Assembly (NCBI GenBank): GCA_017522615.1
Contig: JAFWYR010000006.1
Span: 2,866 to 66,865, forward strand
Reading direction: 5' to 3'
Length of the DNA: 64,000 bases
From: Bacilli bacterium
GTDB taxonomy: Bacteria > Bacillota_I > Bacilli_A > RF39 > UBA660
In this document: in pieces, positions 18,320 to 37,038 of the stretch
Layout of the letters: each line of letters starts with the position of its first letter
Numbering within the stretch: the stretch's first letter is position 1
Translations under genes and position numbers: made by a program
The notes under the pieces: generated by a model
The model's database searches: none
What the model saw: the letters and a program-made list of their open reading frames with translations, nothing else
Told to the model about the DNA's origin: nothing

Positions 18320-20033
18320 TTGTGCCCATTTACTCGCACAAGCTGTAAAACACTTATACAAAGACGCAAAATTTTGGGTAGGTCCTGTAATTACTGAAGG
18401 TTTTTATTATGACATCGATTTAGGTGATAAAAAAATATCAGAAGAAGATTTAGAAAAAATCTCAAAAGAAATGAAAAAAATAGCCAAAGATGGAAAGAGA
18501 ATATATCGAGAAGAAATATCTAGAGAAGATGCCTTAGAACGTTTTAAAGATAATCCTTATAAAATAGATATTATTGAAAATTTACCTAAAGATGAGATAA
18601 TTAGTTGTTATACACAAGGAGATTTCACAGATTTATGTAGAGGGCCACACGTCGACACAGTTAAAAAATGTAAAAATTTTAAATTACTTAAAGTATCTGG
18701 CTCATATTATAAAGGTGATTCTAAAAACAAAGTTTTACAAAGAATATATGGAATTTGCTTTGAAAATAAAGAAGACTTAGAAAATCACTTAAAAGAATTA
18801 GAAGAAGCTAAAGAAAGAGATCACCGTAAAATTGGTAAAGAATTAGAAATATTTATGACATCAGATCTTGTAGGTAGAGGGCTTCCAATGTATCTACCAA
18901 ATGGGTATATTATATGGGAAGAATTGGAAAACTATATAAAAGACAAAGAGAAAAAATTAGGTTATACTCATGTATTAACTCCACCACTTGGTAATGTCGA
19001 ATTGTATAAAACATCAGGACATTGGGATCACTACAAAGAAAATATGTTCCCTAAAATGGAAGTAGATGGTGAAGAATTTGTCTTAAGACCTATGAACTGC
19101 CCACACCACATGATGATTTATTCCAATGCTATTCACTCGTATAGAGATTTACCTATAAGAATAGGTGAAATAGCAAGAGATTGTAGATATGAAACATCTG
19201 GTTCATTAAAAGGAATTGAAAGAACTCGTTCGTTCTGTCAAAACGATGCTCATCTCTTTGTAACGCCTGAGCAAATAGAATCAGAATTCAAAACAGTTGT
19301 CGATTTAATACTAGAGTGTTATAAAGAATTAAATATTAAAGATTTTAGATTTGAATTATCATTAAGAGATAAAGAAGATAAAGAAAAATATTATCCAGAT
19401 GATGAAATGTGGGATAATGCAGAAAACACCTTACGTAAAGTGTTAAATGAAATTGATATTGAATATACTGAAGCAATTGGTGAAGCTGCATTCTATGGAC
19501 CAAAATTAGATGTTCAAGTTAAACCAGCCGTTGGTAACGAATACTCTTTATCAACTTGTCAATTAGACTTCTGTTTACCTATGAAATTTAATTTAACATA
19601 CGTAGATAAAGATGGTTCTAAAAAAACACCAGTAGTTTTACACAGAGCTGTATTTGGTTCAATAGACCGCTTTATCGCATACTATTTAGAGGAAACCAAA
19701 GGAGCATTACCTCTATGGTTATCACCAAAACAAGTTAATATAATTCCAGTAAATAATGAATATCACCTAGAATATGCCAAAAAGATAGAAGAAAAACTAA
19801 GAAAACAAAACATTAGAGTATCTTTAGATTCTAGGGATGAAAAACTTTCGTATAAAATGAGAGAAAGCCAAATTAAAAAAATACCTTATACATTGATACT
19901 AGGGGATAAAGAAATGGAAGAGGGTAATATAAGTTACCGCCAGTATTCATCTAAAGAAACTACTAAGGTGAAAACTCAAGACTTTATCAAGAAAATAAAA
20001 AAAGAAATCGAAAAGAGAAAAACACAAGATTAA
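18273..20033 (+). CDS. thrS: Threonine--tRNA ligase lacking the N-terminal TGS domain
   Basis: Begins at the editing domain (NHSCAHLLAQAVKHLY). Class II motifs (FVLRPMNCPHH, RTRSFCQNDAHLF, GPKLD). Start chosen at 18273 for RBS spacing after gaaggag; 18255 and 18267 are alternatives. Confidence 0.93.
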   Translation: MINIKEDKKLNTLNHSCAHLLAQAVKHLYKDAKFWVGPVITEGFYYDIDLGDKKISEEDLEKISKEMKKIAKDGKRIYREEISREDALERFKDNPYKIDIIENLPKDEIISCYTQGDFTDLCRGPHVDTVKKCKNFKLLKVSGSYYKGDSKNKVLQRIYGICFENKEDLENHLKELEEAKERDHRKIGKELEIFMTSDLVGRGLPMYLPNGYIIWEELENYIKDKEKKLGYTHVLTPPLGNVELYKTSGHWDHYKENMFPKMEVDGEEFVLRPMNCPHHMMIYSNAIHSYRDLPIRIGEIARDCRYETSGSLKGIERTRSFCQNDAHLFVTPEQIESEFKTVVDLILECYKELNIKDFRFELSLRDKEDKEKYYPDDEMWDNAENTLRKVLNEIDIEYTEAIGEAAFYGPKLDVQVKPAVGNEYSLSTCQLDFCLPMKFNLTYVDKDGSKKTPVVLHRAVFGSIDRFIAYYLEETKGALPLWLSPKQVNIIPVNNEYHLEYAKKIEEKLRKQNIRVSLDSRDEKLSYKMRESQIKKIPYTLILGDKEMEEGNISYRQYSSKETTKVKTQDFIKKIKKEIEKRKTQD

Positions 20034-20060
20034 ATACTTGTGTTTTTATTATATTTTTTT

Positions 20061-20342
20061 CTAATTGTTATTCATGTTAGAAACTATTTTTTCTAAATTT
20101 ACTTTAAATGCTTTTTCATCTTCATCGACATATCCCATAAAGAAAATATGTTCAATTTGATCGTGGTTAAAAAGAATCGATTTATCAGTGAAAATTACAC
20201 CTTCAGGATATAAACAACCACAATAGTCAAATAATTGATTGTTAGTTTCTTCTGACTTACAAGCAAATCCAGTAATCATAAGTCTCTTTCTACCACCTTT
20301 AAGAATAACAATTGTACCAATAGGTAAATATTTATCTATCAT
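20061..20342 (-). CDS. DUF4176-family protein (T7SS-associated accessory protein), copy 1
   Basis: KYLPIGTIVILKGGRKRLMITGF...FDYCGCLYPEGV...LFNHDQIEHIFFMGY. A clear paralog of 33405-33794. Confidence 0.75.
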   Translation of the reverse strand: MIDKYLPIGTIVILKGGRKRLMITGFACKSEETNNQLFDYCGCLYPEGVIFTDKSILFNHDQIEHIFFMGYVDEDEKAFKVNLEKIVSNMNNN

Positions 20343-20836
20343 CTTTTGACACCTCTTTCTTGAATTCCGTATTTTTGCATTAAATCTTCATCGCCAATTT
20401 CTTCTAAATATTCTTTAATAGGGTAAACACTTAATAGTTCTTGAGCTCCAAGACCTTTAGCTTTACAATAACAAGATAAAATGTGCATAGCCATAGTCAT
20501 TTTATGATCGTCATCAAATAATAATTCTTGTAAAGTTTGAACTTTTTCAGGACTATTATCAATAAGATTTTCTATCGCATTAAATTCGACATTAGCATTG
20601 TTCATTTGTGCATATAAATCTTGTAAAAAATCTTTGCAATTAACAAAAGCAGATTTTTTCAAACTAAAGAACCCAGACTTTTGGATTTTAGAATCTAAAA
20701 CTCCAATAGTTCTATCTGTCGTTATCTTTGCTTTATAATATTGCCAAACAATATTTTTTAAATATTTAGCTTCAAAATTTTCTATCGTATATTTACCGTG
20801 TAATATTTCGTCTTCAAATTTAGTAATCTCATCCAA
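20339..20836 (-). CDS. Hypothetical 165-aa soluble protein (candidate chaperone or immunity partner)
   Basis: Overlaps the downstream DUF4176 gene by 4 nt and follows the Gly-zipper gene by 10 nt. No TM segment. No family recognised. Confidence 0.5.
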   Translation of the reverse strand: MDEITKFEDEILHGKYTIENFEAKYLKNIVWQYYKAKITTDRTIGVLDSKIQKSGFFSLKKSAFVNCKDFLQDLYAQMNNANVEFNAIENLIDNSPEKVQTLQELLFDDDHKMTMAMHILSCYCKAKGLGAQELLSVYPIKEYLEEIGDEDLMQKYGIQERGVKR

Positions 20837-20846
20837 TTAAATCACC

Positions 20847-22232
20847 TCAAATCACTCTAGTATGACTAACACTAGTATTATTTATAGTCTGAACACTTAA
20901 CTCGTTGTAAAGATTATCGAAAAAGGTTTTAACCTCAGGTTTTTTAGAAACAGAACGTCCAGAACGTTCGATAGTTCCATCTATAGATTTACAAATTCTA
21001 CTAGCAATTTCTTTATCGATGTTATCCGCACTTTTAGGAGTAAAATCAACACCTTCCACATCAAATACACTAAGATCATCAGGAACCAAAGAATCTCTTA
21101 CACTTTCAGAAGAATTAAGTTTAGTTGCAAGCTTGGGAATTGTACCGTAATTAAGTCCAGCCGCAAGACCGCCAAAGATAGGAAAAGCTACCATACTAGC
21201 TATACCACCATTTTTATCAAAGGCTTGAGCTACATCTCCATAATAAAATGAATCGACAACTGTTCCAGAAGACCATACGAGCTCGGCATTTGTAGCACCT
21301 ATCCTAACAGCTTGTCCAAGTGAAGTAACTCCTCCTAAAGCTCCACCACCAAAATAGGTTACACCACCAGCAAAAATTCCTTTTCCTAAAGAAGCAGCGT
21401 ACATTCCAACCTGTTCATCTGAGGTTAAAAATCTCTCACCATTATTAGATAATACTTTATATTTATTTGAATAATCAGAACCCATAGTAAGTAGTCCAAC
21501 AGAAGCAGCAGAGCCGGCTGGACCAAGAAGTATTCCGGACCCTATTATAATACCCATATCTCCACCAGCGCGTCCGACAAGTTTAATATTATTAAAAATC
21601 ACATCATCATATTTTATAAGAGAATAATGATCAATATAAGCGCCAAAGGGCGTATATTTGTAAAATTCTTTAGTAGCTTCGTCCACTATATTTGTAGCAA
21701 TTAAGTTTTGAAGATCATGAACGTGTTGATCGGCATCATTAGTACCTAAAATAGCATCACCAATTGCTGAAACTCCATGAACAAAAGGAACACCAACTAA
21801 AGAAAAAGCCCCATCTATCAAAGTTTCACCAGCATTATAAATACCATTTTTTAGAGCTATATCACTAGCCACAATTGTAGATACAATACTATTTAATCCA
21901 TCTGATATTGGTTGAAGTTGTTCATCAGTTATGCCTCTAACATTAGGATCATGAGTCCCAGTTGAAGTAGTAATAGTAGGCATAGCAGTTTTTTGATTAT
22001 TATTTGAATTACTTGTGTTTGAAGAAACATTAGATAAATTAGAATATTTCGGATTAGTTATATCAACGGTGGCTTCGGGTAAAGGATTACCTAAATTAGA
22101 ATTTGAATAATCTAACTCGAAATCAGGAGTGTTATCAGTAACTGATACGTAATTCAATTTAGTAGTTGAAGTAGTTGTCTTATTAAAATTTATTTTAACA
22201 TTATTGTAATTTAACTTTTTAATGTCACCCAT
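20847..22232 (-). CDS. Glycine-zipper-rich protein: candidate T7SS membrane-active effector or membrane component
   Basis: 461 aa. N/S/T-rich N-terminus without a signal peptide. Three Gly-rich hydrophobic blocks at aa 219-362 (GGDMGIIIGSGILLGPAGSAASVGLLTMG; GKGIFAGGVTYFGGGALGGVTSLG; GGIASMVAFPIFGGLAAGLNYG). Confidence 0.55.
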   Translation of the reverse strand: MGDIKKLNYNNVKINFNKTTTSTTKLNYVSVTDNTPDFELDYSNSNLGNPLPEATVDITNPKYSNLSNVSSNTSNSNNNQKTAMPTITTSTGTHDPNVRGITDEQLQPISDGLNSIVSTIVASDIALKNGIYNAGETLIDGAFSLVGVPFVHGVSAIGDAILGTNDADQHVHDLQNLIATNIVDEATKEFYKYTPFGAYIDHYSLIKYDDVIFNNIKLVGRAGGDMGIIIGSGILLGPAGSAASVGLLTMGSDYSNKYKVLSNNGERFLTSDEQVGMYAASLGKGIFAGGVTYFGGGALGGVTSLGQAVRIGATNAELVWSSGTVVDSFYYGDVAQAFDKNGGIASMVAFPIFGGLAAGLNYGTIPKLATKLNSSESVRDSLVPDDLSVFDVEGVDFTPKSADNIDKEIASRICKSIDGTIERSGRSVSKKPEVKTFFDNLYNELSVQTINNTSVSHTRVI

Positions 22233-22400
22233 TTAATCACCTCAATTCTATACAATAAAAGTATAACATATAACATTAATAATAATAAAATGATAATATA
22301 AATAATTGACATAAATATACATTTTTTATCTTCACATTTATTCATATAATTCATAGAGATAAATATAATATAATATAAAAAAGTACTAGGAGGGATAATA

Positions 22401-26674: not shown

Positions 26675-26751
<77 letters not shown>

Positions 26752-28539: not shown

Positions 28540-31500
28540 ATGATTATATATTTGATTAGACAAAACGAAATTGTGTCGATAAAAGTAGCCTCTGAATATA
28601 AAGGAAACTATTGGATTAAATGCAAGAACGACAGTGCAAAAAGCGTCAACTTGATTAATATAGAAGTAACAGAAGGATCATATGTTGCAAAAAGTAATGA
28701 AGATGCATCTATTGAAATAAATGGTGCACATGTAGAGTCAGCTAACTTGAATATGCATAACTTTTACACCATCAAAACAAAAAAAGAAAAAATGCTTCTA
28801 TATACTATGCCTCTTTATGATAATTCATTTAGAAAATACTACATCAAATCCGATAACATAACGATAGGAAAAACCGATAGCAATATAATAGTATATGGTT
28901 TAGAACTAATATCGGATAATCATGCGACTATTATTAAAACTGAAGAAGGATTAGAAATTGTTAGTAATGAAAGTGCATTTGGAGTATATGTCAACAAAGA
29001 AAAAGTTGGAAGAAAAAAATTAGAGGTTGGAGACTCTATATTTATAGCAGGACTAAGAATAATATATATGGGTGAGTTTTGGTTGATTAATAATCCAAAC
29101 AACATGCTAAAATTAAATTATCAAGTTATAGAAGAAAAACAAGATGTATTTGAAGAAACCACAAATGAAATAAAATCAGATCCGTATATGCAACTATATT
29201 CTGAAAGTGATTATTTTGAAAAAGCCCCAAGATTCATAACAGAATTTGAACCACAAAAAGTAGTGATAGATCCACCACCAAACAAACAAAACACCGAAGA
29301 AATGCCACTTTTATTAACAATCGGACCTATGATGACTATGGCAATAACTTCGATGGTAACAGCGTGGCAAGTAATAAGTAATATGGCAAACGGAGCTGAT
29401 ATTAAAACAGTTTTGCCTTCTCTAATCACTGTAATAGCTATGATGATGACAATGTTATTATGGCCAATTCTATCATCTAAATATCAAAAAAAGAGATCTA
29501 AGCAAAAAGAAGCTGAAAGACAAGAAAAATATCAAAAATACTTGTTAAAAAAGAAGATTGAAATTCAAAATTTAATGAAAAGAGAAAAACAAATAGTAAT
29601 CGACAACAATGTACCTTTGGAAGAATGTCAAAACATAATAATTAATAAAAAAATAAATCTTTGGGAAAAAGAAATATATCAAAAAGATTTCTTGACAGTA
29701 AGATTAGGAATTGGTTCTGTAAAACCAAGCATAGATATCTCATATCCTGAAGAACATTTCACAATGGAAGAAGATAATTTAAAAGATCTTTTAAGTAGAA
29801 CAGTCAAATACGATGAATATATAAAAGAAGTACCAATAAGTATTTCACTTATAGAGAAAAAAATATCAGAAATCAGAGGGGAAGAAAAATTAGTAGGTCA
29901 TTTCTTAGATAGTATATTATTACAATTAATGACATTTCATAGCTATAGAGATCTTAAAATAATAATATTAAAATCAGAAGAAGATGAAAGACTCTCATAC
30001 ATGAAAATGTCACAGTATCTATTTAGTGATGACATGCTAATAAGATTTTACGGAGACAACATAGATGATATTGAACAAATATCAAACTATTTAACTAGAA
30101 TATTTGATTCGAGATTGACAAATGAAAATGTAAAAGCCGAAAACTTTAAAAACTATAATACCTATTATCTAATATTAGCCGATAATGATATAAAAATAAA
30201 ACATACAGGAATAGTAAAAAAAATATTAGAAACAGAATTGAATTTTGGATTTAGCGTTATATTTTTAAGTAATAATTTATCATCATTGCCAAAAGAATGT
30301 ACAACCTTTATAACAATTAGTGGTGAAAACGGAAAAACATCAGGTTACTTTGAAAATGAATTAATAGCAGGCAAACAAAAACAATTTATCGCTGACCTTA
30401 ACTATAGTAATAGAGTTAATCTGCCAAAATGTGTTGAAGCACTAAATAAAATTCCACTAAGAAAAAAAGATAATTTGGAAAAAATGCCAAAAACAATTTC
30501 ATTTTTAGAATTATATAATGCTGGAAAAGTAGAACAACTTAATGTCGAATATAGATGGAAAAAGAACGATCCAACATTAACCTTAAACGCACCAATAGGA
30601 ATAGATGAAAATGGATCAATTTTCAAATTAGACTTACACGAAAAAAGACATGGTCCGCACGGACTTATAGCCGGAATGACAGGCTCTGGAAAATCAGAAT
30701 TTATTATTACTTATATCCTTTCGATGGCCATTAATTACCATCCTTACGAAGTATCATTTGTATTGATAGACTATAAAGGTGGAGGATTAGCTGGTGCCTT
30801 TGAAAATAGAAAAACAGGGTTAGTTTTACCACATCTAGCGGGAACTATAACCAACCTAGATATATCTACAATGAATAGAGCTCTTGCATCAATACATAGC
30901 GAACTTCAAAGAAGACAAATACTATTTAATGAAGCAAGAGAACAATTAGGTGAAAGTACAATAGATATTTATAAATATCAAAGATTTTATAGAGAAGGAA
31001 AGGTTGATAAACCAATTTCTCATCTAGTGATAATATCAGACGAATTTGCTGAATTAAAACAACAAAGACCAGAGTTCATGACAGAACTAATAAGCGCAGC
31101 AAGAATCGGAAGATCACTAGGAGTTCACTTAATACTTGCAACTCAAAAGCCAAGCGGAATCGTCGATGATCAAATATGGTCAAACAGTAAATTTAGAGTA
31201 TGTTTAAAAGTTCAAGATAGATCAGATAGTAACGATGTAATTGGAAGGCCAGATGCAGCCGCCTTAATTGATGTTGGAAGGTTTTATCTTCAAGTTGGAT
31301 ACAATGAACTGTTTGCTCTAGGCCAGTCAGCTTATTCAGGAGCTTCATATTACCCTCAAGATAAAATGCAAAAAAGAACAGATACATCGATTAATTTTAT
31401 TGATAATATTGGAAATACAATAAAAACATCAGATGACAATATTATTACAGTAAAACCAAGTGGAGAAGAATTAACAAACATTGTTAAATATCTTATATCT

Positions 31501-33144
31501 ATATCAGCAGAAAATAACATTAAAGTTGACAAATTATGGCTCGACCAGCTTAGAAATATAATTTATGTAGACGAATTAAAAAGAAAATATGGTTACACAC
31601 CGACAAAAAATATTATTAATCCGATAATAGGAGAGTTTGACGACCCAGGACGTCAGAGACAAGGATTATTAACTTTACCTCTTTCCGAAGACGGTAATAC
31701 TATAATATATGGTGTTGCAGGTAGTGGTAAACAAGATTTACTATCGACAATGATATATTCAATTATTACCGAACACGATGCATCTGAAGCAAGTTTATAT
31801 ATCTTAGATTTTGGCTCTGAAATATTAAAAATGTTTTCACAAGCACCTCAAGTTGGAGAAGTTGTTTCGATAGATGAAGAAGAAAAAGTTCAAAACTTAT
31901 TTAAAATGTTAAATACCGCAATAGAATATAGAAAAACATCTTTAGAAAAATATAATGGTGATTTTAAATTATATAATCAAAAGGAAGAAAAAAAACTTGC
32001 AACATATATTGTCATAATTAATAACTATGAAGCATTTTCTGAAAGTTATGAAGAATGTAATAATATGCTAGCAGTTCTTTCAAGAGAAGGATTAAAATAT
32101 GGAATAATATTTGTATTAGCATGCTCAGCAAGTAATGCTGTAAGATATAGAATATCACAGAACTTTAAACAACTTATCCCATTACAATTAAACGATCCAT
32201 TAGATTACCGAACAATTTTAGGTAAAACCGGAGGAATAATTCCATCAGATAATGTTGGTAGAGGATTAATAAAAATGGACGGCGTATATGAGTTCCAAAC
32301 TGCAATAATAGCTGATAGAGAAAGTCAATTTGAATATGTAAGACAAGTGTGTAAGGAATTAAGCATCAAAAGCAAATATAAAGCAACCAGTATACCAGTA
32401 TTACCTGAAAGAATTTCAATCAATCTACTTAAGCAATACATAAGTCCAAAAACAAATGGATATTTCCCAGTCGGAATATACAAAGATGATCTTAAAGTAG
32501 CATATCAAAATATTAAAAATAATATAGGAACTATAGTTTCTTCAATTGATCAAGATGCATTCGCAAACTTTATAAATCCTTTAATTAGAGAATTTATAAT
32601 AACAAATAAAGTAATCGTAATAGATGCCATGGAAATGGTAGAAAAAGATGACACATTTAATTATCATAACACTAAATTTGATGAAACCATCGATGAATTA
32701 AATAACTATATAGAAAAATTATATAATCAATATTCATCACATAACTATGACGCATCAACCATAGAAAAAGAGGAAAATATTATATGTGTTATATCTGGCG
32801 TTGGAAACCTACTAAATAGGATAAAAAGCGAAACAAAAGAAAAATTTGAAAATATGTTCACAAAAGATGCCGAGGTAAAAAAAGTATGGTTTGTTATAGT
32901 TGATACTGCAACTAATTTAAAGAGGGTAGAATTTGATAATTGGTATAAAGCAGCTATAACTCAAAATGCCGGAATTTGGATAGGAAATGGTATCAATGAT
33001 CAATCAGTCATCAAACTTGCAAAATTAGTACCAAACGGCAATATAGAAATTAAAAATAATTATGGATATGTTGTCAATAAAGGTAACGCACAATTTACAA
33101 AATTGTTAGAAGGTGAAATGGATGGAAAACAAAATACTAATTGA
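28540..33144 (+). CDS. essC: T7SSb EssC/YukB-type FtsK/SpoIIIE ATPase with N-terminal FHA-like domains
   Basis: 1534 aa. FHA-like ITIGKTDSNIIVYG...DNHATII...GVYVNKEKV. Two TM helices (aa ~255-310). P-loop D1 GMTGSGKS with Walker B LVIISDEFAEL, D2 GVAGSGKQ, D3 without a P-loop. Confidence 0.9.
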   Translation: MIIYLIRQNEIVSIKVASEYKGNYWIKCKNDSAKSVNLINIEVTEGSYVAKSNEDASIEINGAHVESANLNMHNFYTIKTKKEKMLLYTMPLYDNSFRKYYIKSDNITIGKTDSNIIVYGLELISDNHATIIKTEEGLEIVSNESAFGVYVNKEKVGRKKLEVGDSIFIAGLRIIYMGEFWLINNPNNMLKLNYQVIEEKQDVFEETTNEIKSDPYMQLYSESDYFEKAPRFITEFEPQKVVIDPPPNKQNTEEMPLLLTIGPMMTMAITSMVTAWQVISNMANGADIKTVLPSLITVIAMMMTMLLWPILSSKYQKKRSKQKEAERQEKYQKYLLKKKIEIQNLMKREKQIVIDNNVPLEECQNIIINKKINLWEKEIYQKDFLTVRLGIGSVKPSIDISYPEEHFTMEEDNLKDLLSRTVKYDEYIKEVPISISLIEKKISEIRGEEKLVGHFLDSILLQLMTFHSYRDLKIIILKSEEDERLSYMKMSQYLFSDDMLIRFYGDNIDDIEQISNYLTRIFDSRLTNENVKAENFKNYNTYYLILADNDIKIKHTGIVKKILETELNFGFSVIFLSNNLSSLPKECTTFITISGENGKTSGYFENELIAGKQKQFIADLNYSNRVNLPKCVEALNKIPLRKKDNLEKMPKTISFLELYNAGKVEQLNVEYRWKKNDPTLTLNAPIGIDENGSIFKLDLHEKRHGPHGLIAGMTGSGKSEFIITYILSMAINYHPYEVSFVLIDYKGGGLAGAFENRKTGLVLPHLAGTITNLDISTMNRALASIHSELQRRQILFNEAREQLGESTIDIYKYQRFYREGKVDKPISHLVIISDEFAELKQQRPEFMTELISAARIGRSLGVHLILATQKPSGIVDDQIWSNSKFRVCLKVQDRSDSNDVIGRPDAAALIDVGRFYLQVGYNELFALGQSAYSGASYYPQDKMQKRTDTSINFIDNIGNTIKTSDDNIITVKPSGEELTNIVKYLISISAENNIKVDKLWLDQLRNIIYVDELKRKYGYTPTKNIINPIIGEFDDPGRQRQGLLTLPLSEDGNTIIYGVAGSGKQDLLSTMIYSIITEHDASEASLYILDFGSEILKMFSQAPQVGEVVSIDEEEKVQNLFKMLNTAIEYRKTSLEKYNGDFKLYNQKEEKKLATYIVIINNYEAFSESYEECNNMLAVLSREGLKYGIIFVLACSASNAVRYRISQNFKQLIPLQLNDPLDYRTILGKTGGIIPSDNVGRGLIKMDGVYEFQTAIIADRESQFEYVRQVCKELSIKSKYKATSIPVLPERISINLLKQYISPKTNGYFPVGIYKDDLKVAYQNIKNNIGTIVSSIDQDAFANFINPLIREFIITNKVIVIDAMEMVEKDDTFNYHNTKFDETIDELNNYIEKLYNQYSSHNYDASTIEKEENIICVISGVGNLLNRIKSETKEKFENMFTKDAEVKKVWFVIVDTATNLKRVEFDNWYKAAITQNAGIWIGNGINDQSVIKLAKLVPNGNIEIKNNYGYVVNKGNAQFTKLLEGEMDGKQNTN

Positions 33145-33404: not shown

Positions 33405-33794
33405 ATGAGTGAAGAAAAAACAGAAGAAATAATCGAAACTTTAGAAACTGAAGAAAAACCAAAAGATAGCGATATACCTAACAAATACTTACCAATAGGA
33501 AGTGTTGTAACATTAAAAAATGCGATAAAAAGCTTAATGATTATTGGTTACTGCCCAGTTACTAATAATAACGAATTATTTGACTATTGTGGGGTATTAG
33601 TACCTGAAGGCTTACTTGAATCAGATAAATTTATAGTATTTAATCATAATGTCGTTGAAAAATTACACTTTCTAGGATTACAAAACGAAGAACAAAAAAA
33701 GTGGGAAAACACTGTTGAAGAAATGGCTAAAAACGCTATTAATAATAGTTATACGCAAGAAAACACAAGCAATAATCAAAATATAGAAAATTAG
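33405..33794 (+). CDS. DUF4176-family protein, copy 2 (with acidic N-terminal and N-rich C-terminal extensions)
   Basis: KYLPIGSVVTLKNAIKSLMIIGY...FDYCGVLVPEGL...VFNHNVVEKLHFLG. Confidence 0.75.
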   Translation: MSEEKTEEIIETLETEEKPKDSDIPNKYLPIGSVVTLKNAIKSLMIIGYCPVTNNNELFDYCGVLVPEGLLESDKFIVFNHNVVEKLHFLGLQNEEQKKWENTVEEMAKNAINNSYTQENTSNNQNIEN

Positions 33795-35067: not shown

Positions 35068-37038
35068 ATGCCAAGTGAACCATGGTATGGCAATGCGTTA
35101 GCAAACACAGGGCCTAAAGTCAAATCTACGATGTCAGACGGAAATGGCGGAACATATTCTTTTTTGGAAGATGGTACAACTAGGTATACAGTAGATACAA
35201 GTCGCTCTGTAAATCCAACCGCTAGCGGATCAGGAGTAGTAGATACTAACACATCACGTTATAAAACCTACGATACAACAACTTTAATGCCACAATACTT
35301 AGATAAAGGTAATGGTAGTACATTATATAATTCAAATATTAATGGAGAATATGCCGATAGACTTCAAAATGAAAATAGAAAAAGACAACTATATGTACAA
35401 CAACAGGAATATAATAATTTATACAACAAAGCTAAAGAAAAAAATGCTCAAGGTATATTTGAATATTATCCTGATGAATTAGCTAGGGCAATTTTAGGAA
35501 TTAATGATGCCCTTACATTAATTGAATCTGCAAAAAGTTCAATACAGGCAATAAGTACTGCAGCTTCTAGCGCATGTTCTAAACATAATGCAGAATTAGC
35601 AAACGATCATTATCTAAAAGAAAGATGTGGGGATGCTAACTTAAGTTCTAAAATTCAATCATCAGCATCATCAGTTTCTAATAGTATATCTTCAGTAACT
35701 TCAGCTATAAATAATGTAACTAATAAGCTAAGTGCATTTTTACAAAAAGCTGGAATAGTTGACGACGTCGTTAATCAAGCAAACCAAATAATTAATTCTG
35801 TAAATAATTCAAATGCCGGATATGCAGGAACTCCATTAATTTCATTACTTAATGATAGTTCAATTGTTAATGGTTACCAAGAAATCGGTGAAGCAAAAGT
35901 AGGTGGAGGAATCACCATACCTGTATATAGTCCATCAAAACGTGCTCAATATAGTACTGAACACTTAAGTCAAGCTGCTCTTTACAAAACAGGTCTAATG
36001 TTTGAAAATGGTGTTCTTAATGGACTTGAGTCCTTATCTGACGCAGCATTATGGCTTGGTGCCAAATGCGTTGAACTTAAATACTTCCCATTAACGCACT
36101 TCACATCTGTTGGAAAAGCCGCAATGAATAATGTATATGGTTTTATACAGGAAGATCATACAGCAAACTTGCTAAAGAGCCAAACAAATAGTGGTATGGG
36201 CGGTTATTATGAGCGAATTGTTTTTGATCCTTTAAAAAACGATGGAGGACTATTTAAATCAGGTTCTAAACTTATCGAAACAGCTACCACGTCATACTTG
36301 ACAGGTAAAATAGTAAAAGCCGTAAATTTTTTAGGTACCATGGAACAAGAAGCTACAATAGGAGCCAAAAGTTTACAATCAGCTGAAGGAGCAGAAGTAA
36401 TTGAACAAGGAGCAGTAAAAGGAGCTCAAACTGCCGAAACAGCTGCAACTGAGGGAACTGAATTAGCAGAAAAAGGATCAAATTCATTTATTAATAGACT
36501 TAGAAGTGAACTACCTGATACAGGAAAGGCGACAAAAAAGACAATAGATTTTTCAAAAGGAACTTCAGAAAATATGGAAAGTAGAGCTAAAAATAATCCA
36601 GGTATTGATCCGGAATATAATTCAACCACTTCAGCAGTTGAAGAATTAGCAGAAAATATAACAGGAAAAGTGGCAGAAAAAGTTCCAGTGCCAGGATTAA
36701 ATAAGGATGCTGGTACCATAATAACAGATAAAATGAATTTAGGAACTGTCGAAAAAGATCTTGTTAAAAAAGGTGTAAATATGACAACAGAAGCTGCATT
36801 GGGAAGCGTCCCTGAACCAGTAAAAGCATATACCGATATAGATGGTTATTTAAGCTCAAGAGTTTATGATATACCTGAAGCAGCAGCAGCAGCACCGGGA
36901 GCTTTAAACAATGTGAGAAATGAAATAGCTAGTGCTATGAATATTGATATAAATAATCCTGATCCTAGAAATGCAAATGAACCAGTAAATACAACTGCCT
37001 CTGGAACATCGCAAGACACACATAATTTAATACCATAA
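35068..37038 (+). CDS. Large (656 aa) candidate T7SS substrate of unknown function
   Basis: RBS ggggagg. No signal peptide or TM segment. Long S/A/N-rich helical segment (aa ~150-235). Motif ENGVLNGLESLSDAALWLGA resembles KNGIYNAGETLIDGAFSLVG in the 20847-22232 protein. No toxin domain recognised. Confidence 0.5.
   Translation: MPSEPWYGNALANTGPKVKSTMSDGNGGTYSFLEDGTTRYTVDTSRSVNPTASGSGVVDTNTSRYKTYDTTTLMPQYLDKGNGSTLYNSNINGEYADRLQNENRKRQLYVQQQEYNNLYNKAKEKNAQGIFEYYPDELARAILGINDALTLIESAKSSIQAISTAASSACSKHNAELANDHYLKERCGDANLSSKIQSSASSVSNSISSVTSAINNVTNKLSAFLQKAGIVDDVVNQANQIINSVNNSNAGYAGTPLISLLNDSSIVNGYQEIGEAKVGGGITIPVYSPSKRAQYSTEHLSQAALYKTGLMFENGVLNGLESLSDAALWLGAKCVELKYFPLTHFTSVGKAAMNNVYGFIQEDHTANLLKSQTNSGMGGYYERIVFDPLKNDGGLFKSGSKLIETATTSYLTGKIVKAVNFLGTMEQEATIGAKSLQSAEGAEVIEQGAVKGAQTAETAATEGTELAEKGSNSFINRLRSELPDTGKATKKTIDFSKGTSENMESRAKNNPGIDPEYNSTTSAVEELAENITGKVAEKVPVPGLNKDAGTIITDKMNLGTVEKDLVKKGVNMTTEAALGSVPEPVKAYTDIDGYLSSRVYDIPEAAAAAPGALNNVRNEIASAMNIDINNPDPRNANEPVNTTASGTSQDTHNLIP

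Follow-up and report, generated by a model that had tools for sequence, protein, structure and literature searches.

The three-gene module at positions 20061–22232 on the minus strand is best explained as a free-standing type VIIb effector cassette, a reading to which we give a probability of about 0.55. The 461-aa product would be the cargo, the DUF4176 protein its chaperone and the 165-aa protein its neutralizer, with export by an EssC encoded 6 kb away. The window, meaning the whole 64,000-nucleotide stretch of DNA under analysis, contains only one T7SS ATPase. This presumed exporter is a 1534-aa EssC with FHA and FtsK/SpoIIIE domains (28540–33144, plus strand).

The module consists of three minus-strand open reading frames of 461, 165 and 93 codons, located where the earlier note had placed them. 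The candidate effector gene opens the operon (20847–22232; ATG start at 22232) and is followed after 10 nt by the gene for the 165-aa protein (20339–20836; TTG start at 20836). The stop codon of the latter overlaps the start of the 93-aa small DUF4176 (Ltc/Lcp-type) gene as ATGA (20061–20342; ATG start at 20342). A GAGGTG-type ribosome-binding site stands ahead of all three start codons, as AGGTG in the case of the 93-aa gene. A bidirectional terminator-like hairpin (20018–20047), with an 11-bp stem and then a T run on both strands, lies 14 nt beyond the DUF4176 stop and is common to the operon and the convergent plus-strand thrS.

Upstream, the 461-aa gene is separated from the divergent spoIIIAH by an AT-rich intergenic region (22233–22400). 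This region is the presumed site of the operon promoter from reading its sequence; a promoter scan of it performed no better than on shuffled sequence. In the public runs surveyed for expression, the only RNA-labelled run, a doubtful one that is flagged as genomic, gave a single 251-nt contig.

The GC3 of the module matches that of its neighbouring genes, so the module has long been resident. A recent horizontal insertion was rejected for the same GC3 match and the absence of flanking repeats, and a phage-defence system was rejected as PADLOC gave no match. As listed previously, the genes between the module and the essC locus encode SpoIIIAH, GerE, Germane/GerM, XFP, a tRNA-Arg(TCT) (26675–26751), enolase and a prepilin-type protein.

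The assignment of the 93-aa protein to DUF4176, made earlier from the sequence alone, passes a profile search. Pfam PF13780 matches it at E 3.3e-26 with 91.6 bits, where the cut-off is 25 bits, over profile positions 1–74 of 74. The solved small DUF4176 structure 9DCS matches its residues 4–82 (E 2.8e-10). Its length falls inside the small size class of 70–130 aa, the large class being 200–250 aa (PMC12478183). A 129-aa DUF4176 protein of the essC operon (33405–33794, plus strand; Pfam E 6e-23) is its paralog, as had been claimed, with 45% identity and E 1e-28.

The 461-aa protein begins with a polar N/S/T-rich region (aa 1–100; 21933–22232, minus strand, as for all its parts), predicted to be disordered from its composition (N 17%, T 15%, S 11%) and from AF2 (pLDDT 25–44, zero helices). 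Other family members have a helical head at this position. A PTIxTSxG...ITDEQL stretch is weakly conserved here with P0123, the sole full-length relative (457 aa, 28% identity, E 7.5e-29), and with a second satellite of locus L009. The N-terminus is not hydrophobic, so no Sec-type signal is apparent. LXG (PF04740) is absent, and neither Pfam nor NCBIfam matches any part of the protein even at E 1.

A family-wide central helical domain follows (aa 103–296; 21345–21926), defined by homology, AF2 and an HMM. AF2 models it as a helical bundle with pLDDT 60–83 and is weak outside it. Within this domain, which is probably a membrane-insertion or translocation module bound by DUF4176, lies the first hydrophobic hairpin with a glycine zipper (aa 211–263). 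The second glycine-rich block (aa 297–365; 21138–21344), delimited by an alignment of four toxins and an HMM, carries the motif W..G..VDS.YY.DV..AF..NGGI. Its HMM matches only the loci whose toxin precedes a 165-like gene. The last part is a variable tail with two predicted helices by AF2 and alignment (aa 366–461; 20850–21137), of which the last helix (K.P....FF..L) alone is common to P0123. The full HMMER scan of 1.84e9 representatives found no relatives of this tail.

The Gly-zipper character ascribed to the protein is confirmed by G223xxxG227xxxG231, by G355xxxG359xxxG363 within the second block and by a Gly-rich run at 285–312; the third zipper is kept in P0123. The hydrophobic windows are merely moderate, with Kyte–Doolittle values ≤1.64. 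No toxin domain is recognizable in the last 160 residues. Foldseek of the AF2 model against the PDB gave nothing significant and no match below E 0.7, and a PDB search with the family sequence profile yielded only noise, without any chain at E<0.04. Thus neither the PDB profile nor Foldseek indicates homology to the characterized glycine-zipper toxins TspA, TelD, TelE and EsxX.

Used as queries in word-based homolog searches, the 461-aa and 165-aa proteins returned self-matches only, among 5.8e9 proteins for the latter. The full HMMER scan of the 1.84e9 representatives added 20 partial relatives of the 461-aa protein to the full-length one. In these, aa 104–315 match proteins of 650–1236 aa, several of which end in ADP-ribosyltransferase (ART) or DUF3626. 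The ART-ended core toxins lie directly downstream of an orthologous essC (1519 aa) and an 86-aa gene, whose product is 37–39% identical to an 86-aa protein of the window. They adjoin genes for DUF4176 and an immunity-like ADP-ribosylglycohydrolase (ARH). The 93-aa DUF4176 gene is therefore linked, by adjacency, to the gene of a protein that shares its core with essC-linked ART toxins.

A core HMM recovers proteins outside its training set, of 545 aa at L008 and of 589 and 592 aa at L013, with E 8e-53 to 5e-39. It finds 45 ORFs in 95 loci, the module's own copies and the training sequences included. The core toxins and essC adjoin close DUF4176 relatives, too. Among 80 new loci of such relatives, about 25 have an ORF with the core domain, in most cases right beside the DUF4176 gene, and essC is present in 13. 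The EssC of the window is 41% identical to that of L008, which is followed by DUF4176 and a central-domain toxin. Genome-contig scans with the 165-like and the 461/P0123 alignments gave no matches; the wide 461-family alignment is too variable for contig search.

The toxin, 165-like and DUF4176 genes recur as a triad in three other metagenomic lineages. One triad (L009/L010; 457, 158 and 110 aa) is free-standing in a CotZ/YutH neighbourhood, another (L005; 539, 170 and 115 aa) sits inside an essC operon, and the third (L007) encodes 206, 180 and 98 aa. Identities among the triads are 26–38% for the 165-like proteins, 27–34% for the toxins and 57–68% for DUF4176. As judged from these comparisons, the three genes are shown to be co-inherited.

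The 93-aa DUF4176 has 158 relatives of ~49–68% identity, and it is 57–68% identical to the DUF4176 of other organisms versus only 45% to the main-locus copy. In the DUF4176 tree, the four triad genes make one well-supported, starred clade (98/91) with the essC-linked paralog outside, on a separate long branch. Because the two copies do not group, the module appears to be a separate lineage rather than a duplicate of the main locus. By tree and identity, then, the two are paralogs and not recent duplicates.

The earlier reading, in which the module serves the T7SS as an effector or accessory cassette, is supported by the DUF4176 profile match, the presence of the core in essC-linked toxins and the triad inside an essC operon. 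The link of the module to the T7SS is, on this genomic evidence, well supported.

The 165-aa protein is soluble, acidic (pI 5.2) and all-helical, and represents a rare unannotated family with no match in Pfam, NCBIfam, PHROGs or PADLOC. Its relatives were reached solely via synteny, at L009 (39% identity, E 4e-29), L007 (29%, E 1e-15) and L005, where the BLAST match is confined to the N-terminal 37 aa (E 6e-7). Its single-sequence AF2 model is helical with a pLDDT of 39 and unusable. In the family, the N-terminal 40 residues are the most conserved (FE..vL.G..sIE.FE...Y..AK), and near the C-terminus Tyr138 is invariant, with acidic residues after it.

The 165-like gene is found only with toxins that have the second Gly-rich C-terminal domain and is absent from the 80 loci of close DUF4176 relatives. 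The C-terminal 160 aa of the 461-aa protein are lineage-specific, and the 165-aa gene that comes next co-varies with them. As the 165-aa protein is rare, tied to the second domain of the toxin and co-diverging with it, it is probably a toxin-specific cytoplasmic neutralizer or immunity protein. The earlier note had left its role as chaperone or immunity factor; that alternative stands, and the co-variation with the toxin end makes it lean to the neutralizer or immunity side.

At L090, an unrelated 184-aa protein is encoded between DUF4176 and a toxin with an HExxH end. Since the slot holds a different protein there, it follows the warhead, as immunity genes do. Genes for ~150-aa proteins upstream of DUF4176 elsewhere were considered as distant 165-like members and rejected, being coiled-coil, Lap-like and of zero similarity.

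No gene of the module encodes a multi-TM protein, so a polytopic membrane immunity gene of the DUF443 or DUF5079/5080 type is absent from it, as are Lap and WXG-like genes. The one hydrophobic ORF in the vicinity (47 aa, 22211–22354) was rejected as an immunity gene, as it has no ribosome-binding site and overlaps the 461-aa start. Gene calls upstream of the L009 and L010 modules include no equivalent of it. The hydrophobicity of this ORF may simply reflect AT-rich DNA.

These features suggest the following course. The 461-aa cargo would have a disordered polar N-terminus and then a helical glycine-rich hydrophobic core (aa ~103–300) for membrane entry, followed by a lineage-specific second glycine-zipper domain and tail (aa ~300–461). 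It is most likely this end that would make the protein a membrane-damaging toxin, depolarizing or pore-forming, rather than an enzyme carrier. The 93-aa DUF4176, the probable cargo chaperone, would work in the producer cytoplasm. By binding hydrophobic or amphipathic helices of the 461-aa protein it would keep this cargo soluble, stable and export-ready, and it would stay behind once the cargo leaves through EssC. The 165-aa protein would recognize the lineage-specific C-terminal domain and neutralize the toxin inside the producer.

Several features weigh against this effector-cassette reading. The module has no LXG domain and none of the Lap, WXG-like and polytopic membrane immunity genes, the segments of the 461-aa protein are only moderately hydrophobic, its last 160 residues show no toxin domain, its AF2 model is weak outside the central domain and had no significant Foldseek match, and the 165-aa protein is helical where the DUF5085 neutralizers are alpha/beta.

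It is possible, though unlikely, that the cassette and its cargo are as above while the 165-aa protein is an export adaptor or co-chaperone that presents the cargo to EssC, replacing the LXG/Lap signal. In that case the cargo could perhaps do without neutralization in the cytoplasm. With no Lap or WXG partner and no LXG head in the module, the signal must come from something, and the conserved N-terminal 40 residues look like a common interface, not a toxin-matching surface. The 165-aa gene is also translationally coupled to DUF4176. In Streptococcus suis, the non-LXG MSE-ExT reach a distant EssC via a YxxxD region on the immunity protein or MapC2 (PMC12558993), to which Tyr138 and the acidic residues near it could be compared. 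However, many other DUF4176/core-toxin loci likewise need export and have no 165-like gene, which tracks the type of the toxin C-terminal domain and matches the toxin in its rate of evolution. Moreover, the aligned 165-like family has no conserved FxxxD or YxxxD/E and no match to DUF6572.

A bolder view, speculative and distinctly unlikely, takes the glycine-rich core guarded by DUF4176 as a self-contained membrane-entry device. A stripped-down T7SS of EssC and a ubiquitin-like protein, without EssB, to which LXG effectors are known to dock, would then serve effectors lacking an LXG head. Naturally devoid of a warhead, the 461-aa protein would kill solely by forming pores, and the 165-aa protein would be both cytoplasmic antidote and EssC adaptor, the latter like the EIC-CR tail of S. 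suis.

It is improbable that the 461-aa protein is a warhead-less helper of membrane insertion, acting as a translocator or accessory for other effectors, such as the 656-aa protein of the main locus, or standing in for missing T7SS membrane subunits. Its best-conserved part is indeed the stretch found ahead of enzymatic warheads in its relatives, and it comes with no recognizable toxin end and no membrane immunity gene. Other short warhead-less members exist, too, such as P0133 (377 aa, adjoining DUF4176). Yet a machine part would be expected wherever such an essC occurs, whereas one full-length relative was found in 1.84e9 representatives. The family is also polymorphic, a single locus having several paralogs (four at L013), and the 461-aa protein has a dedicated fast-evolving partner, as toxins do. 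A missing T7SS membrane subunit was rejected for this polymorphism and paralogy and because conservation of the family does not go along with essC.

A decaying remnant, a polymorphic toxin minus its N-terminal head and warhead that is retained by chance, would fit the short tail, the low-complexity N-terminus and the absence of an immunity-type membrane gene, and the MSE-ExT were also initially regarded as fragments (PMC12558993), but it is highly improbable given three intact reading frames with strong ribosome-binding sites, identical copies of the module DNA in several gut metagenome samples that stem from at least two submissions, and the 457-aa relative with an equal three-gene layout in another genome context, whose survival at only 28% identity is not expected without selection.

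The effector-cassette reading has precedents in part. A small DUF4176 is required for the stability and export of the membrane-depolarizing TelD and was proposed, as a speculation, to bind membrane-inserting helices (PMC12478183). Like TelD and MQE10_09270 of Streptococcus intermedius GC1825 (PMC12478183), the module links a small DUF4176 to a T7SSb toxin, here a putative membrane-acting one. TelD comes with Lap partners, an LXG head and membrane immunity of the DUF443 type (PMC12478183), whereas the module is without all three and has the 165-aa protein as an extra partner.

Other glycine-zipper toxins also have soluble partners. The DUF4176 protein Gallo_0561 stabilizes the glycine-zipper toxin TelE, in its middle and C-terminal region (bioRxiv 10.64898/2026.03.12.711312), and the soluble ExiAB engages the glycine zipper of EsxX inside the cytoplasm (PMC12744356). 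As in EsxX/ExiAB/ExiCD of S. aureus ST398 (PMC12744356) and TelE/TipE/Gallo_0561 of S. gallolyticus, a glycine-zipper protein is encoded next to a soluble partner, which in those systems neutralizes the toxin in the cytoplasm of the producer and here is a putative neutralizer. The 461-aa protein is likened to EsxX and TelE by its zipper motif and gene layout, no sequence similarity being detected.

By this analogy, the 165-aa protein would most likely be a functional analogue of ExiAB and TipE with a different fold. Those neutralizers are DUF5085 (GyrI-like alpha/beta), while the 165-aa protein is helical and of no family. EsxX and TelE carry LXG domains and have polytopic membrane immunity, and the module has neither. 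Among the known channel-forming toxins of the T7SS and T6SS, nearly all are paired with a polytopic membrane immunity protein (PMC12744356).

The S. suis MSE-ExT resemble the cassette in their described architecture, being effectors without an LXG/YeeF head that have a conserved region and a variable end, with a distant EssC presumed here. Their conserved region is ~300 aa, and a non-neighbouring full-length EssC exports them (PMC12558993). They differ in that their ends are NADases and their immunity proteins, with a DUF6572/YxxxD tail, are encoded downstream of truncated essC copies (PMC12558993). The 165-aa family has no Pfam match and no aligned YxxxD motif, and DUF4176, present in the module, is not mentioned for MSE-ExT (PMC12558993).

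A further likeness is to TelA/LtcA and TelB/LtcB of S. intermedius B196 (PMC12478183), in which DUF4176 goes with a hydrophobic or amphipathic middle region; its binding is predicted here. LtcA and LtcB bind the toxin region between the targeting head and the warhead, a proposed membrane-translocation domain (PMC12478183). However, Ltc are large DUF4176 proteins of 200–250 aa that serve cytoplasm-acting LXG toxins (PMC12478183), as opposed to the 93 aa here.

In summary, this analysis delineates a core domain, widespread among the T7SS toxins of gut Firmicutes and so far unannotated, together with a new and rare partner family. The source organism is uncultured, and the value of the finding is that of a lead, not a discovery. 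If the proposed reading is true, the cassette would be a compact three-protein test case for the recognition by EssC of effectors without LXG/Lap, and would also bear on what the small DUF4176 chaperones bind.

The minus-strand module is most economically read as a satellite T7SSb effector cassette. Its three open reading frames occupy 20061–22232, precisely as the earlier note gave them. The 461-aa gene (22232..20847) starts with ATG and the 165-aa gene (20836..20339) with TTG, 10 nt past the 461-aa stop, each with GAGGTGA as the upstream ribosome-binding site. The ATG of the 93-aa gene (20342..20061), with AGGTG upstream, overlaps the 165-aa stop (ATGA). A hairpin flanked by T runs (20018–20047, both strands) ends the module operon and the convergent thrS.

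Upstream, nothing but an AT-rich spacer of 168 nt separates the 461-aa gene from the divergent spoIIIAH. The GC3 of the three genes (0.16–0.18) is that of the neighbouring genes, and no flanking repeats marking an insertion are found around the module. The genes on the way to essC are also those listed before, for SpoIIIAH, GerE, Germane/GerM, XFP, enolase, tRNA-Arg(TCT) at 26675–26751 and a prepilin-type protein. The window EssC (28540–33144, plus strand) is 1534 aa long and carries FHA and FtsK/SpoIIIE domains.

A very hydrophobic 47-aa ORF (22211–22354, minus strand) overlaps the 461-aa gene at its start and was considered as a small membrane immunity protein. It lacks a ribosome-binding site and has no counterpart in the gene calls upstream of the related modules in the metagenomic loci L009 and L010. 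We rejected it as a probable artefact of the AT-rich spacer.

The 93-aa product is a DUF4176 protein, as had been proposed: it covers the entire Pfam profile (E 3.3e-26) and has a further match (E 2.8e-10) in 9DCS, a solved structure of a small DUF4176 protein. Its claimed paralogy with the 129-aa DUF4176 protein of the main locus, encoded in the order essC, 86-aa gene, DUF4176, holds at 45% identity (E 1e-28). DUF4176 proteins of other organisms are nearer to it (57–68% identity) than this 129-aa copy, and the two copies in the window are not sisters in a maximum-likelihood tree. The pair are old paralogs that did not arise by recent duplication. A further match of the 93-aa protein is to phrog_14657 (E 1.3e-20), a functionally uncharacterised family of phage proteins, so DUF4176 genes occur on phages too.

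DUF4176 proteins are toxin-specific T7SSb chaperones (Gkragkopoulou et al., PMC12478183). The large ones, LtcA and LtcB, fold the disordered amphipathic region between LXG head and warhead, and the membrane-depolarising toxin TelD depends on the small MQE10_09270 for its stability and export; that small forms bind membrane-inserting helices is the authors' speculation (PMC12478183). TelE is a glycine-zipper toxin whose middle and C-terminal parts are stabilised by the DUF4176 protein of its operon (bioRxiv 10.64898/2026.03.12.711312). The 93-aa protein would be such a cytoplasmic chaperone, with the 461-aa protein as its cargo.

The 461-aa protein has no match in Pfam, NCBIfam, PHROG or PADLOC, and its N-terminus is not Sec-type. 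When 1.84 billion representatives were scanned in full with HMMER, 22 proteins reached E<1e-3, the sole full-length relative being P0123 (457 aa, 28% identity, E 7.5e-29), encoded in L009. The remaining matches (377–1236 aa) have only aa ~104–315 in common, and several carry a C-terminal ADP-ribosyltransferase (ART; PF03496) or a weak DUF3626 match. AlphaFold2, given the 22-sequence alignment, models aa 1–100 as disordered and aa 103–296 as a helical bundle (pLDDT 60–83) with a hydrophobic hairpin at aa 211–263, the rest being of low confidence.

Of the profile and structure searches that the earlier note suggested, the former succeeded for DUF4176, while Foldseek with the 461-aa model found nothing significant in the PDB, nor did a profile search of PDB sequences with the family. 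The protein's segments are glycine-rich, with GxxxGxxxG at aa 223–231 and 355–363. Their hydrophobicity is only moderate, which counts against a simple toxin, as do the lack of a recognisable warhead in the protein and of a membrane immunity gene in the module.

The family N-termini are of two kinds, either a short polar tail like that of the 461-aa protein or a helical head of ~100–230 residues, and Pfam recognises LXG in none of them. Three satellite-effector N-termini (window 21933–22000, aa ~78–107; L009:8001–9374; L009:111–1193, minus strand), otherwise of low complexity, have in common a short stretch of the pattern P-T-I/V-x-T-S/A-S/T-G ... I/F-T/N-D/N-E-Q/M, modelled as two short strands just ahead of the core. 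This stretch may serve partner binding or export. At the other end, an extreme C-terminal helix, K.P....FF..L[Y/F] (20850–20945, aa ~430–461), is kept in P0123, and the ~60 residues ahead of it are not alignable.

An HMM of the core (aa ~103–300) recovers toxins outside its training set (E 8e-53 to 5e-39). About 25 of 80 metagenomic loci with close DUF4176 relatives hold a core-domain ORF, mostly adjoining the DUF4176 gene, and essC is also seen in 13 of those loci. In L013, L014 and L015 the core-domain toxins are encoded downstream of essC (1519 aa) and of a gene for an 86-aa product, 37–39% identical to that of the window. An ADP-ribosylglycohydrolase gene comes after the toxins in all three, and a DUF4176 gene in L013 and L014; L015 has none.

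ADP-ribosylglycohydrolase is the expected antidote to an ART toxin, and its gene follows the ART-ended toxin in L013. The four core paralogs of this locus, tandem toxins of 938, 762, 589 and 592 aa downstream of a single essC (L013:2822–13669), form a polymorphic toxin array of the 461-aa protein's family. L011 begins with the DUF4176 gene, after which come a Lap-like 158-aa gene, the toxin, a 129-aa gene and lastly the glycohydrolase. In L090 (2133–5303) a 760-aa core-domain toxin with a C-terminal HExxH (zincin-like) motif is followed by an unrelated 184-aa gene, DUF4176 and essC, the effector genes being ahead of essC. The slot between toxin and DUF4176 follows the warhead there, in the manner of immunity genes.

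The last gene of the window's essC operon (35068–37038) encodes a 656-aa protein. At aa 311–368 it scores weakly with the core HMM (12.7 bits, E 4e-4 when all window ORFs are searched), and its BLAST comparison with the 461-aa protein gave nothing significant. It may hold a very diverged core and so may pair with the 129-aa DUF4176. The genome of P0123 has a second satellite (L009:1–2136, minus strand), on the other strand ~6 kb from the first. Its products are a helical protein of 313 aa, a hydrophobic protein of 360 aa with a polar head, and a DUF4176 protein (104 aa, truncated where the locus ends).

The 165-aa protein has no family match in Pfam, NCBIfam, PHROGs or PADLOC, and a word-based search of 5.8 billion proteins gave no relative. 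Its relatives were found solely via synteny, beside the closest DUF4176 homologs, in L009 (158 aa, 39% identity, E 4e-29), L007 (180 aa, 29%, E 1e-15) and L005 (170 aa), where the BLAST match is confined to the first 37 residues (E 6e-7). All triads keep the order toxin, 165-like, DUF4176, inside an essC operon in L005 and again as a free-standing three-gene module in L009 and L010, in a CotZ/YutH/NifU neighbourhood. The DUF4176 genes of the four triads form a single clade, starred in the maximum-likelihood tree (support 98/91).

The four triad toxins have in common a second glycine-rich block, W..G..VDS.YY.DV..AF..NGGI, absent from the ART toxins, and none of the 80 other DUF4176 loci examined has a member of the 165-like family. 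Across the four lineages, pairwise identities are 57–68% for DUF4176, 26–38% for the 165-like proteins and 27–34% for the toxins. What the 165-aa gene tracks is therefore the C-terminal domain of the toxin, rather than DUF4176 as a whole or the core.

As a cargo-specific partner, the 165-aa protein would most likely be a cytoplasmic neutraliser. The precedent is EsxX, whose glycine zipper is sequestered in the producer by soluble ExiAB, with outside protection via separate polytopic proteins (PMC12744356). It may instead be an adaptor, or antidote and adaptor together, a reading kept in play by the S. suis MSE-ExT toxins, where the tail of the immunity protein supplies the EssC-binding signal (PMC12558993). 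That the 461-aa protein itself is a machine subunit, a translocator or a decaying remnant is unlikely, as its family is polymorphic with many paralogs and P0123, near-equal in length and with the same gene order, has survived at 28% identity in different genomic surroundings.

In summary, the satellite cassette would belong to a known type of system, in which a DUF4176 chaperone and a cognate protective partner accompany a T7SSb toxin. It differs in having neither LXG head, Lap partners nor membrane immunity gene, in a toxin core of an unannotated family common to the ART toxins of essC-first loci, in a new and rare partner family and in standing alone away from essC. The 461-aa cargo would be built on the family's membrane-entry core, its lineage-specific glycine-zipper end probably being the toxic part. 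Its export would go through the EssC 6 kb off, the sole one seen in the window, for which the head-less MSE-ExT effectors of S. suis, served by a distant EssC, are a precedent (PMC12558993).
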